64,000 bases of DNA from Schmidtea polychroa (Eukaryota): assembly GCA_044892525.1 (NCBI GenBank), contig CM097885.1, positions 265,422,001 to 265,486,000 of the forward strand, written 5' to 3'. The notes beneath the pieces are model-generated. The model made no database searches and was not told the DNA's origin. It saw only the letters and a program-made list of their open reading frames with translations. Shown piece by piece: positions 4,383 through 19,468 of this stretch. The first letter of the stretch is position 1; every line of letters begins with the position of its first letter. The translations under genes and the position numbers were made by a program.

Positions 4383-4855
4383 TGTAAAAACTGTTCGAAG
4401 GACTCCGGAAGGACAAGGAGCAGGCGCAGCAGCAAGCAGAGCGGCTGCAACTTAGCGTCAATCAGTTCAAGGAACGTTGTCGGAAGATGGAACAGAGTTG
4501 GATTCGCCCTGAGGTGGCACATAAGTACTTGAGGCAGATCGAACAACTACAGCTCCAGAGTACTCAAGACAAAACCGAAATACGAGCCCTAAAACTACAG
4601 ATGCGGGCCATGGAGACAAAATTGAATCAACGGGCCATCGACGAGCACGTCACGGCAGCGATCCGTCTCATGGCTATAGAACTGGCCGAAATGCACCCAC
4701 CCAAACCCAAGGCCAAGCGAAAACGGCTAGGCCGAGATGGTCGTGAGCGACTCAAACGACTAGGGCTAGCCGAACAAAGACTAGAAGAAGAGGCAAGAAA
4801 GTCAGCGCTACTTGACAGTTCATGTGCAGGACCGATGGATATAAATAAAGTGTAG
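4383..4855 (+). pseudogene. ORF B copy 1 (TWFSP-family coiled-coil protein with basic KRKRLGR motif), premature TAA at 4385-4387
   Basis: Aligns with 13386-13853(-): QSWIRP vs GTWFSP, EIRALKLQ, KRKRLGR. Preceded by a ttttaattcag acceptor. TAA stands where copy 3 has TAC. Confidence 0.75.
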
Positions 4856-4965
4856 ATAGTTGAAGTTGAATTTTTGTATGTTGAATGATGAAGATGAGTG
4901 ATGAGATGTGCATGGCGTTTTTGGGAAAACAATAGAAGTAGGGGACCAATGAAATCGGACACAAA

Positions 4966-5174
4966 TCTTCTAACGATAGTCTGTGGACCCAAGGAGTGCT
5001 TGAAAATTATAGTGCAAGTAGTGCACTCACTTTTTGCGAGTACTCCCCCAGTTGACACAGTACCAACGGTGATCGCTCATCGGGTGTCAATTGGCAAAAT
5101 CAAGCTTGTATTCTGGGTTACGCTGGAAACAGCACGAAAGGGTGAAATGTCTGACCACCTGTAGCCCACCAACA
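4966..5174 (+). ncRNA. Structured terminal region, copy 1 (CCAA-bulge hairpin plus terminal stem), ending CCCACCAACA
   Basis: CCAGTTGACAC(5048-58)-AGTACCAA-CGGTGA-TCGC-TCATCG-G-GTGTCAATTGG(5084-94); TGGGTTAC(5114-21)/GTAGCCCA(5161-68); GCTG-GAAA-CAGC hairpin. RNA function is inferred from covariation. Confidence 0.6.
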
Positions 5175-5492
5175 CTATCGCGGATAAAATTCGGTTAATC
5201 CCCTATCTCTTTTTCCGTTCACCTATATCGGGTTGTTGACGCATTTAGGGCCAGCCTTGATCCTTAGAAGTAATCTTTAGGGCGGTTTGTATAACCGTTT
5301 TCTGTTCTGTAGTGTGCAGCCAGGTTTTTTTGTATTGTAATTAAATCAATTGTTTGTAAATTATTTAGTTGAAATAAATATTTAAAACATATTTGTTATT
5401 TATATACCTTTACCTACACGCGTTATAATTAATATTTGTGGAGTCAGATTTTCGATTGTGTTAGTTCGAGTACCTACCCATCGAACCTAACA
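5175..5492 (+). mobile_element. 3' portion (R/U5) of a Gypsy 5' LTR
   Basis: Ends ...CCTAACA three bases before a tRNA PBS and gag, and contains AATAAA at about 5374. The 5' boundary is not identifiable. Confidence 0.7.
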
Positions 5493-5495
5493 TTT

Positions 5496-5513
5496 TGGTG
5501 AGCCCGACGTGAT
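5496..5513 (+). promoter_or_regulatory. Primer-binding site complementary to tRNA-Trp
   Basis: TGGTGAGCCCGACGTGAT is a 17/18 match to the complement of the conserved eukaryotic tRNA-Trp 3' end (TGGTGACCCCGACGTGAT). Confidence 0.85.
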
Positions 5514-15849: not shown

Positions 15850-16281
15850 TTATAATTTTATAATCCAAGTTTATATATAATAATCTATAATTGATATTTT
15901 GTACGTAAAATTAAATCGTAACCATCAATATACCTATATAATTTATAATCAACTATTTACAATAATTATTTATAATTTATATTTTGTGAGTAAAATTTAT
16001 TCGCAACTATTTATAGATTATCTTTCTATGGACAATATACGTTTATAATTTATATACAACCATTTCTACTTTATATTTTATAATCCAAATTTTTTTATAA
16101 TTATTTATAATTTATATTTTTATAAGTAAAATTTATTCGTAAATATTTATAGGTTATATTTTTAGGATCAATGTCCGTATATACTTTATATATAGCTATT
16201 TACAACTATTTATATATAGCTATTTATGCTTTATATTTTATAATCAAAATTTTTATATAATTATTTATAATTTATATGTTT
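15850..16281. repeat. AT-rich minisatellite (left part), interrupted by the 16282-20032 insertion and resuming at 20033-20300
   Basis: The unit ttatttataatttatat..tttataagtaaaatttattcg..actatttatag.ttatatttttaggatc is restored across the junction when 16282-20032 and one GTTT are removed. Confidence 0.85.
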
Positions 16282-16600
16282 TGTTGGGCTGAGTCGAAAG
16301 CATAATCGTCAAATTTAGGACAGATAAGACGTGAACAAATAAAATAAGACCACAAATTGCTAAAATAAATAAATCAAGAGACAAAAGAAACAATAACGTA
16401 AAATATTAAGATTAAAACAAAAAATAAAAAAATAGAAAAATTAAAATAAGGTAATAAGATAAGGAATAAAATGACGAAAAATGCAACAAATAATGAGGAA
16501 TTTAAGAAACAAATAAAAAATATATTAAAATAAAGAAAAATAAGAAAAAACAACCAAAGAAATAAGAAAAACAAATTAATTTAAAAGTTAAAGCGGTACT

Positions 16601-16642
16601 CAATTTTGATTGGTCCGCATAAACAAAAAATTCCTATATAAG
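16601..16642 (+). promoter_or_regulatory. CCAAT (ATTGG) plus TATA promoter cassette of C2
   Basis: ATTGG at 16609-13 and TATATAA at 16635-41, after a 250-bp A-rich tract. Confidence 0.65.
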
Positions 16643-18719
16643 CAAACAGCAAATTCAATATAGTTACTGTTTAACAAACACCATTACAGATCAACACTCA
16701 ACCATTACAGACGATCACCGACGTACAATATAAACGACTATCAGGGACAATTAGATTTTCAACTCAGTATAATAACCGAATTTAGCTTTTCGAGATCACA
16801 GATCGATAAAGAATAAAGTAAGGATGTATTCTTATTATGAATTTGAGTAAATGTTTCTCATGGAAGTTAATAGTAATAATGTTTATTATCACAATTTTAA
16901 TAAAATTTTAATGTTCTCTCCATTTGGTCTCATATTTTAATAATCAAGTATTTTTAGTAATGAAATTTAAAACCTTTATGATAGATAACTATGCATGATA
17001 ATTTCGATTTTTATGGAATTTATATGAAAATTATGATTGAGTAACGTGGAGTTGAGGAGACCTGTACCATGGTGTGAGGAGCCTTCGGGAGCTCAGCCGG
17101 TGGGCACAGACTTCTTCAATCACGCAGCTGACGTGGGCCGGAAAGTGGGGGCTTCCTCACTGGTCCGTCGCTGAGGGAATTAAAACGTTGCAAGAATTAG
17201 CTGACAATAACATAGAGTACCATTTGGATTCGAAAAGGAGGATGATCTTAAAAACAATGACTGAGGTGGCTACCGACGTTTATTTATCAAAAACTCATCG
17301 TTCTTGGCTGTTACATCTTGAATTCGTTACCTAATATCCGTAATTAGTCTGAATCGCCTAAGTGTACCAATCGACATTCCACCTTCTGAGTACCAAACCC
17401 TTTTCTGTTGAAATGCATGTCAATTTCCGTCTGACCGGTAGAAACTGAGTACTAACCCATTCGTCGACGCTATACAATCACATGAGAAGTATAGATGAAA
17501 TTTATTGAACACAATTTTTAATAAGAAAATGTATTACGAAACTGTTTTATTTTTAACCAAATTATTTCGAAGTGTTCTGAAAATTACACTCACAGTAGGA
17601 TAAACTCCCTTCAGTAAAGGACCTCTCCGATTGACCTTGTCAAATGGTAGATTTTTCGAATAAGTTGAAGGAAATGACCACGAAATAAAGTTATCCAAGT
17701 GGAAAACACAATTAACTGCACATCGCGGGGAAAAAATCCAACATTAGCGTTTGATGAGAGAGCCACCAGATGACATATTGATTCCACGAATTGCTTATAC
17801 CCAGCGGTGTATTACGATCATCTGCGAACGATAATTTCCGATAATGAGCAAACATACGAGATAAATCACACGCACTAACACACTAGTACCTACTCACATA
17901 TGCCACATGCAGTATTTTCCCAGTCAGCTACAAGTATTGAGAACCGAAATTAAAACACGCACATACAACAAGGTTGGCTCGGATAGATAGCAGGCTGCCT
18001 GTCCCATGCGTCCATTATCTGGCATGACGAACTATTTTTCATGAGATTAATCTTATTACAGGTGTTTCCCGACACATAGCTAATTTCATCGTAGATTAAA
18101 ATTTTAACTTGCAGGATGGTAATTCCGAACATTAATAATAGATAACGGCCAGGTGATTGGTGTATATTCCAAACTACTGGGTATTAAACAGGGACCCAGT
18201 AGCTATTGAGTGAAGATTAATTTTGCCTGCGCATCCGCCCGTCGAGGTGGGCATCTTGAGTTATGTCCTGGGGGAATAATGCGTTAGTTAGCGGGGAAAT
18301 CGGAATGCATTAATAATAAAACTTTGTTTTCTGCGTTTTGTCTATTTCAAAAGATATTATTTGAAGGAATTATTAGTTATCGGCTCAATTGCGTTGTCCA
18401 TTTTTGTACGAGGAGGTTGGACATCCCCACATCTAATTAATTACGAATTTGTTTTTGTTGTTACTCCATTACACTAAAGGGAAGGGGGTCACGGCTTACA
18501 ACTCGACCGGTAGATGACATTCGAATTTAATAATAATAACTTAGAGATTTTTCTTCACCCGTTAGCATAAGTCCCTTCCTATTAATATATTAGGACCACA
18601 TTAAAATTAATGTATAGCTTGTAGGAAAATTCATAGATGATTAGGCCACCAGGTTGGTTTAATAGACATAGCGAATCTTATTTTTATCCTAATTGTTTCT
18701 TTCATTATAGTCATTGAGA

Positions 18720-19468
18720 ATGTTACCGAGCTCGAAGTCGTCTCTCAAACCCTGCTTCTCATGCTCAGATAAGAATTCTATAATCAGGGATTTGCAACCC
18801 CGATCGGTCGATACAAGAAAGCGATCGACCATCTGGAAGGTACATGGTTCAGCCCAGTACAAATGAAGGAGGTACAAAAGAAATTGTACCGAAGCGAGCA
18901 CTGTCGCGACGCCTTAATAAGTGAGAGTAGGGCCCAACGCAGTCTTATCAAAGAGCAGTCCGAGGCTCTACACAAAGTCTACGTACAAGCAGCAGCGACT
19001 AGAAAAATAGTGAGTATACCCATCAATGGAGCGGACGACCTTTTCCCCGTCCATCATGAACTTCCTTCCAATTCATCATCTTCAACTAAGAAGCCCTGCC
19101 AGGAATGCGTGGAAGCCGATCTCTCTCCCAGGCCAACCATAGTGTCTCCCATTGGAGCCCAGAAAAGGTTATCATCGACCGCGTCTTCCTCTGTCGTACT
19201 ATCAAACACCCCGATTGTTCCAAAACCCAAGCGTCGACAGTTGTCTAGAGCTGAGCGTAAAAAGCGTCAGCGCGAACGAGCAATCGCCAAACAAAGTGGA
19301 CTATCTGCCGAGCTCTCCAGTACTTCGAACGATCCCCCTGTAACGATCGACTTAACCGTAGGGATCCCAGGGCGAATCATCTCCGCCGCTGGTGTAACCT
19401 GGGAGGAGAATGCCTCCGAATTTTTCGAGCTGGAGGAGCTGTTAGCCGACGCAGAATGGGAAAAGTAA
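18720..19468 (+). pseudogene. ORF C copy 2 (about 249 aa), with a 1-nt deletion frameshift near 18800
   Basis: MLPSSKSSLKPCFSCSDKNSIIRDLQ-[fs]-IGRYKKAIDHLEGTWFSPVQMKEVQKKLYRSEHCRD...; colinear with C1. Preceded by a ctttcattatag acceptor; AATAAA at about 19607. Confidence 0.8.

Follow-up and report, generated by a model that had tools for sequence, protein, structure and literature searches.

A 64,000-nucleotide stretch of the planarian Schmidtea polychroa genome (GenBank assembly GCA_044892525.1, contig CM097885.1, positions 265,422,001 to 265,486,000; hereafter the window, numbered from its first base) carries three kinds of open reading frame (ORFs A, B, and C) that lie within the long terminal repeats (LTRs) of giant Burro-type gypsy elements. 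Judging from its putative promoter, splice, and polyadenylation signals, each of these LTRs very probably constitutes a self-contained spliced and polyadenylated gene, and the encoded proteins likely regulate their own element. We would put just under an even chance on these proteins acting mainly at the RNA level. Equally tentative is our more specific reading, in which the coiled-coil, arginine-rich product serves as a nuclear early switch, similar to retroviral Rev or Rex, that lets the element's unspliced full-length RNA be produced and exported. LTRs are usually regarded as lacking protein-coding content, and solo LTRs as leftover promoters, whereas here the LTR appears to be a spliced protein-coding gene, probably present in thousands of copies in this one animal genome. 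A first-pass annotation, made from the sequence alone, had described five homologous frames in the window, three of ORF B (copies 1 to 3) and two of ORF C (C1 and C2), as an element-encoded accessory protein under purifying selection. Element context and substitution ratios, reported below, back that proposal; the annotation recognized the frames and the selection but gave no element identity, LTR position, splice structure, or ORF A.

The carrier elements emerged from genome-wide searches with three queries, in which a first look returned 6675, 3670, and 6008 candidates (not copy numbers) and the best 150 per query were scored. Among the 150 best matches to copy 3, a sample biased toward high-scoring copies, 119 were free of stops. 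Identical matches occurred in pairs spaced ~26 kb (ORF C) or ~30 kb (ORF B) apart, and these pairs are the two LTRs of single elements, with TG...CA ends and lengths of 4.15-4.2 kb (C-type) or 5.6-6.1 kb (B-type). LTR pairs are 99.8-99.98% identical in the youngest elements, where the ORFs are intact. Full elements carry a primer site, TGGGGGCTCAG, after the LTR and measure 30.2 kb with 4.15-kb LTRs (C-type) or ~36-37 kb with 5.6-6.1-kb LTRs (B-type). Their internal polyprotein of 4617 amino acids contains, in Pfam order, gag, zf-CCHC, Monjiviricetes fusion, RVP, RVT_1, RNase H, and integrase domains, with env (the fusion glycoprotein) in frame between gag and protease. The polyprotein also contains ankyrin domains, and the internal region additionally holds RING and TRAF/MATH ORFs; Pfam detected no BIR or BCL2-like motifs in the one C-type element scanned. 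One full element with copy 3-type LTRs lacks env and pol, keeping gag and downstream accessory ORFs.

The available text of PMC6431247 describes planarian Burro (GYPSM1) as a ~30-kb element whose internal region of ~25 kb has ankyrin repeats, a MATH/TRAF ORF, and an env lying in frame between gag and protease. Since size, in-frame env, ankyrin repeats, and a MATH/TRAF accessory ORF are all shared by the elements described here, we assign the carrier to Burro, an assignment based on this published description. The same text names no LTR ORF, whereas one or two conserved ORFs, accompanied by splice and polyadenylation signals, were present in each Burro-type LTR family that we examined.

Burro LTRs in the window

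The window contains Burro-type LTRs only, solo or truncated and partly nested, and no match to the Burro polyprotein. Copies 1, 3, and C2 are solo LTRs, with TG...CA ends, target-site duplications, and neither primer site nor internal region, while copy 2 and C1 are truncated. Eight of nine resolved copy 3-type LTRs are likewise solo with 4-bp duplications. The features are as follows (a slash marks a splice junction).

1..5171, plus strand: copy 1, B1-type Burro solo LTR starting 1433 bases before the window; TG...CA ends; target-site duplication ACAC
132..229, plus strand: copy 1 TATA box (132-142), predicted leader exon (end 223), and predicted donor A/GTAAGC
3671..4039, plus strand: copy 1 ORF A, 122 amino acids, directly after an AG acceptor; AATAAA at 4110
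4383..4855, plus strand: copy 1 ORF B exon, SWIRP variant, after TTCAG; stop at 4385-4387; AATAAA at 4844
4917..5171, plus strand: copy 1 conserved 3' block of the B-type LTR (U5), predicted multi-hairpin RNA
5176..7340, plus strand: small gypsy element, unrelated to the LTR genes; LTR remainder, primer-binding site at 5497, broken gag at 5592-6725
7350..8531, plus strand: copy 2, B2-type LTR, 5'-truncated; ORF A 3' end to 7449; AATAAA at 8203; structured 3' block; CA end
7702-8141, plus strand: copy 2 ORF B exon; stop at 7746-7748
8532..12408, plus strand: C1, C-type LTR with ~10 bases missing at its start, at the junction with copy 2; CCAAT at 8857; TATA-like box at 8883; AATAAA at 12012
10734..11432, plus strand: ORF C copy 1 (in C1), 232 amino acids; acceptor AG at 10729-10730; departs from the family frame near 11410
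13010..22658, minus strand: copy 3, B3-type Burro solo LTR, 5.9 kb minus the nested insertion; TG...CA ends; target-site duplication CAGT
13010..13270, minus strand: copy 3 conserved structured 3' block
13386..13825, minus strand: copy 3 ORF B exon, intact; acceptor AG at 13827-13826; AATAAA at 13360 and 13328; ATG predicted across the splice junction
14139..14501, minus strand: copy 3 ORF A, intact, 120 amino acids; acceptor AG at 14504-14503; AATAAA at 13995
16282..20032, plus strand: C2, C-type Burro solo LTR nested in copy 3; TG...CA ends; duplication GTTT; CCAAT at 16609; TATA at 16635; donor after 16817; AATAAA at 19606
18720..19468, plus strand: ORF C copy 2 (in C2); acceptor AG at 18709-18710; reading frame switches near 18790-18800; basic tract; acidic FFELEELLA tail
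21911..22004, minus strand: copy 3 TATA box (22004-21994), predicted leader exon (end 21917), and predicted donor A/GTAAGT

All five annotated frames were seen in six-frame translation. Positions 4383 and 7702, listed by the annotation as ORF starts, are not start codons; they are the first bases after an AG acceptor. The TWFSP motif ascribed to all five copies is present in four, copy 1 reading SWIRP instead. Both CxxC motifs reported for ORF C occur in the window (CFTC and CTSC in C1, CFSC and CQEC in C2), though the second is not family-wide, being replaced elsewhere by CxGH and CCGxH variants. The suggested kinship of ORFs B and C also holds, with an hhalign probability of 96.7 (E 3.8e-10, 116 columns) between profiles built from 28 B and 30 C sequences. 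Only copy 3 is intact, the other four window copies being broken; C1, beyond its loss of frame, lacks the acidic tail.

Copy 1 is inserted into the LTR of the small gypsy element, and its ORF A comprises a W-rich helix, a coiled coil, and a KRGRPRK AT-hook-like end. The copy 3 LTR is 97% identical to other copies in the genome. The 3' end of the C1 LTR was placed at CAACA beside a transposase-like frame, with no confirmation among relatives. The 5' end of a further C-type LTR, with CCAAT and TATA boxes, lies at 31880-32293 on the minus strand.

Predicted splicing and polyadenylation

The two LTR types share a similar predicted organization, with a short leader, an intron of 2-4 kb, and an acceptor directly before the ORF. 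In the C-type LTR, a CCAAT box (LTR position ~330) and TATA box (~356) are followed by a donor (~625), an acceptor (2825), ORF C (2835-3584), and AATAAA (~3719). The B-type LTR has a TATA box (~655), a donor (~741), an acceptor with ORF A (~4397), AATAAA, a second acceptor with ORF B (~5072), and a further AATAAA, after which the LTR ends in a conserved 250-nt block. Across subfamilies, ORFs A and C begin a few bases past an AG acceptor in most listed copies. In 45 of 47 ORF A copies and 58 of 67 ORF B copies, an AATAAA lies no more than 200 nt past the stop, compared with 63 of 171 intron windows (37%) that contain one.

ORF B copies do not have an ATG in common. One lies upstream in frame in 34 of 37 B2/B3 copies but in only 1 of 31 B1 copies, although the first 35 residues are conserved between these groups. 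Its start codon is probably made by splicing (A/TG), since leaders end in A and acceptors precede TG. The acceptor reads YAG/TG in 66 of 68 intact copies, and A precedes the donor in all 28 distinct B leaders (background 33%) despite variable leader length and frame, one additional leader having no donor; relatedness of LTR copies by descent weighs on both counts. The control for the A at -1 is weak because C-type donors often carry it too. A comparable arrangement is found in Drosophila gypsy, where, according to the available text of PMC2585583, the env start codon spans a splice junction (AT/G) in the internal region, whereas the junction predicted here is A/TG and lies inside the LTR. A fourth, strongly diverged LTR type with ORFs A and B retains the AG/TG acceptor before ORF B. 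Two other routes to ORF B were considered and rejected: ATGs in the leader occur in all three frames and are stopped in 21 of 28 leaders, and fusion of ORF A to ORF B via a donor at the end of ORF A would use a GT that is not conserved.

Most internal accessory ORFs also start a few bases after an AG acceptor-like site, and many have AATAAA past the stop. The arrangement suggests that one leader may be spliced onto many internal cassettes. This acceptor-ATG-AATAAA layout, which includes the RING and TRAF/MATH ORFs, favors the idea that ORFs A, B, and C encode host-directed or particle-associated accessory proteins that came to lie in the LTR by historical accident. We consider that idea quite improbable: basic tracts and the AT-hook-like motif suggest nucleic-acid binding, and ORFs A, B, and C have no host-like domain.

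Selection on the LTR proteins

The first-pass annotation singled out 19 codons, QTQAEQDQLEIRALKLQVR, in which copy 2 (from 7869) and copy 3 (from 13658, minus strand) differ at ten positions, and all ten differences are indeed synonymous (nine at third and one at first codon positions). Over 144 codons, the two copies yield nonsynonymous (dN) and synonymous (dS) divergences of 0.081 and 0.67, a ratio of 0.12. Genome-wide, summed dN/dS at dS 0.3-1 was 0.17 for ORF A (224 pairs), 0.12 for ORF B (512), and 0.14 for ORF C (13), in pairs that are not independent and come from intact ORFs only, saturated pairs having been left out. These between-subfamily ratios are far below 1, where a value near 1 would have counted against the annotation's proposal.

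Selection acts mainly in replicating lineages and serves the element rather than the host, since shared changes are more constrained than private ones: ORF B ratios are 0.10 for shared versus 0.44 for private changes in B1 (p 1e-5) and 0.20 versus 0.49 in B3 (p 0.013). Among 16 young ORF B copies, private changes are neutral (0.99) and include two stops, which led us to reject host selection on inserted copies.

Cassette exchange and the R region

From ~7.5 kb onward, two full B elements match at mostly 91-99% identity, with 82% and 86% in two windows of 500 nt. They are also 90% identical over the first 698 nt of the LTR, while their introns cannot be aligned. Between these elements ORF B is synonymously saturated (pS 0.76, versus 0.21 for the reverse transcriptase and 0.07 for env). 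Matches of B2/B3 to B1 LTRs (85-91% identity) stop between TATA+29 and TATA+62 in 18 of 19 non-B1 rows, which include a few repeats of the same element. These patterns point to exchange between elements of a cassette beginning past the TATA box and to a putative multi-kb R region, since such a break is what template switching would leave were U3 to end at that point and R to contain the ORFs.

Because an R region of 3-5 kb would be extreme, one might instead place the ORFs in U3 under their own internal promoter, with genomic RNA starting in the 3' block, or regard them as frames that are no longer expressed. Such readings seem scarcely credible, given that the ancestry break falls at the TATA box, the ORFs are intact in young elements with 99.8%+ identical LTRs, and the final 300 nt of the single B LTR checked contain no AATAAA. 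One AATAAA lies in the last 380 nt of the C LTR checked.

The cassette is the most diverged and exchanged part of the element, as might be expected if its products were anti-silencing factors that counter PIWI-interacting RNA (piRNA) or heterochromatin silencing and if exchange reflected a host arms race; VANC-like factors offer an analogue. Furthermore, BURRO1 is de-repressed when SMEDWI-2, a PIWI protein of the nucleus, is lost, according to the available text of PMC8532177. However, ratios of 0.12-0.17 give no indication of positive selection, and Pfam and PDB sequence searches found no chromatin-reader domain, making this explanation rather improbable.

The B-type 3' blocks (4917-5171, 8279-8531, and 13010-13270) have conserved predicted hairpins in which 11 of 61 pairs show compensatory change, a count reached by 1 of 500 shuffles, although relatedness can inflate this control. 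An Rfam scan of the block gave one chance-level match only (E 0.26).

Features and relatives of the LTR proteins

ORF C is predicted to comprise a CxxC motif, a helix (16-40), a TWFSP turn, a second helix (46-99), an NxFPxHH motif, and a disordered linker, followed by a basic helix (177-197) and an acidic hydrophobic tail (FFDLDEIF or VDIDEML), the latter found in 28 of 34 long copies. The structure model has a mean pLDDT (predicted local distance difference test) of 64.7, with the core above 90. Conserved Cys/His residues in ORF C could be zinc ligands. ORF B retains the helices and the conserved basic tract without the acidic tail and cysteines. ORF A combines two long helices with an RGRP at its end that is invariant in 20 of 20 aligned sequences; its Pfam AT_hook score is 10.8 bits against a cut-off of 17.4. 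AT-rich tandem repeats of ~136-160 bp lie in the B-type LTR intron (1413-1996, 15786-16280, and 20034-20640), their number varying by copy, and are possible candidate sites for an AT-hook protein.

Pfam found nothing above cut-off for ORFs A, B, or C, PDB sequence searches nothing significant, Foldseek searches with the protein models no match at E<=0.001, and an Atlas search weak matches or none. Searches of a protein database matched none of 1025 candidates for ORF C and none of 25 for ORF B. No match identified ORF A, B, or C as a host gene or as gag or env, the alternatives raised in the first-pass annotation. A profile search returned 6 matches among 8000 scored, and a representative search 11. 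The database relatives are 14 predicted proteins, most with the domain fused to unrelated host domains. Several of the fused proteins share an IFDN-M junction, and they are probably chimeric gene models in which gene predictors may have used the LTR acceptor, a caution that host exons can end up joined to LTR acceptors in planarian gene models. Since the host parts of two tested proteins match the S. polychroa genome at 73-92%, the 14 relatives probably come from a related species. Distant relatives carry NRRRRERR, and one matches Pfam REV below threshold (E 0.0013, 19.1 bits, cut-off 22). A tree of 34 rows places B, C, and the external rows in one group apiece; B is long-branched and the root unreliable.

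That the protein is nuclear and acts in anti-silencing, transactivation, or targeting, as the annotation proposed, may be inferred from the basic tracts, AT-hook-like motif, and acidic tail. Of these roles, transactivation would make the LTR proteins Tat/Tas/Tax-like activators of the Burro promoter, with ORF C acting through its basic region and acidic tail, and, in B-type LTRs, with ORF A binding AT-rich LTR DNA and ORF B serving as its partner. The tail pattern of ORF C (hydrophobic-x-x-hydrophobic-hydrophobic in an acidic context) resembles activation domains, and its prevalence among long copies, the invariance of RGRP, and potential zinc binding by the conserved Cys/His residues all favor this explanation. 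Nevertheless, we consider it unlikely: ORF B has neither tail nor cysteines, yet its helices and basic tract persist; the AT-hook score is under cut-off; and B1 and B2/B3 have a promoter part in common while their ORFs have been exchanged, which argues against tight ORF-promoter matching.

A possible early RNA switch

We favor an early Rev-like switch because of the LTR layout and the arginine-rich tract. Transcription would start just past the TATA box, at LTR position ~355 (C-type) or ~655 (B-type), so that the ORFs lie in a 3-5 kb R region. The short leader would be spliced to the acceptor ahead of ORF C or else to the one ahead of ORF A or of ORF B (A/TG). Ending at the AATAAA inside the LTR, the resulting short RNAs would be what a new insertion or solo LTR makes by default. 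Genomic RNA would instead keep the intron and read through the internal AATAAA, since progeny LTRs retain both intron and AATAAA signals. The protein would probably oligomerize via its helices, bind element RNA via its basic tract, and favor read-through or export, with the structured U5 block as a candidate RNA binding site.

Several observations weigh against this switch. Pfam gave no REV match for ORFs A, B, or C; Pfam, PDB, and Foldseek searches detected no Tat/Tas/Tax homology; arginine-rich tracts resemble one another by composition; and inspection by eye found no clear leucine-rich export signal in the ORF proteins. The acidic tail of ORF C and the AT-hook-like motif of ORF A fit transcriptional control better, and priming and packaging would call for a structured U5 in any case. 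The entire splice model is, moreover, inferred from DNA. AATAAA within 200 nt past ORF C is at background level (16 of 30, versus 49 of 99 windows, or 49%), and C-type donors, which need no split ATG, have A at -1 in about half of a small set of candidates. In young ORF A copies, private changes give 0.35 rather than ~1, and the dN/dS pairs, as stated above, are interdependent.

Comparison with known systems

Rev and Tat roles in complex retroviruses are reviewed in PMC7264820. Like Rev, Rex, Tat, and Tas, the Burro LTR proteins would be small basic proteins with an arginine-rich tract made from spliced early RNAs, the splicing here being predicted; unlike the LTR ORFs, those proteins are encoded internally and not as a full gene in R. 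The available text of PMC10309623 describes CERV of the Caenorhabditis elegans Cer1 element as a novel accessory protein made from a spliced mRNA and needed to export unspliced genomic RNA. Cer1 is also similar to Burro in being a gypsy element with a tRNA-Pro primer site and an accessory protein from a putatively comparable spliced mRNA; by the same text, however, the coding sequence of CERV sits in the internal region, Cer1 LTRs measuring ~490 bp, and its domains are different ones. CERV thus serves as a functional precedent for the proposed switch. Retroviral ORFs, too, can overlap an LTR. The Burro ORFs lie downstream of the TATA box and share one LTR with a predicted intron and AATAAA. 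In mouse mammary tumor virus sag, human immunodeficiency virus nef, and foamy virus bel2, by contrast, the coding sequence inside the LTR lies in U3, upstream of the start site. Because TATA box, intron, ORF, and AATAAA share one LTR, a solo Burro LTR would be a complete gene.

Burro-type elements are already known as a kind. A literature search, which did not cover the original Burro paper and the ORFs it may show, turned up no title or abstract dealing with reading frames inside Burro LTRs; LTR ORFs are not described in the available text of PMC11410931, PMC8532177, and PMC13524379. It is possible, though we lean against it, that Burro LTRs are complete exchangeable regulatory genes, having promoter, leader, intron, alternative terminal exons (one of them with its ATG made by splicing), and polyadenylation signals within a 3-5 kb R region, with thousands of solo LTRs able to supply a Rev/Tat-like protein in trans and near-identical cores swapping cassettes and thereby altering their regulation. 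If the LTR is indeed a spliced protein-coding gene, the length of Burro LTRs would be explained, an invertebrate retrotransposon would have an early/late switch in the style of complex retroviruses, and the ORFs would offer targets testable by RNA interference in a model where PIWI loss de-represses Burro.

Neighboring sequences

The small gypsy element at 5176-7340 has four zinc knuckles and a primer site that we take to be tRNA-Trp-like, and 40 scored relatives are 90-93% identical to it. Its gag at 5592 was rejected as a partner of ORFs B and C: it belongs to another gypsy family, and ORF B or C lay within 1.5 kb in none of five relatives examined. The transposase-like fragment at 12410-12810, presumably of hAT type, adjoins the inferred 3' end of the C1 LTR. 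Elsewhere, an insertion between two B-type LTRs carries ORFs that we take to be Polinton-like. A G-rich minisatellite at 28756-30520 contains 72 copies of a 24-25 bp unit with 94% matches.

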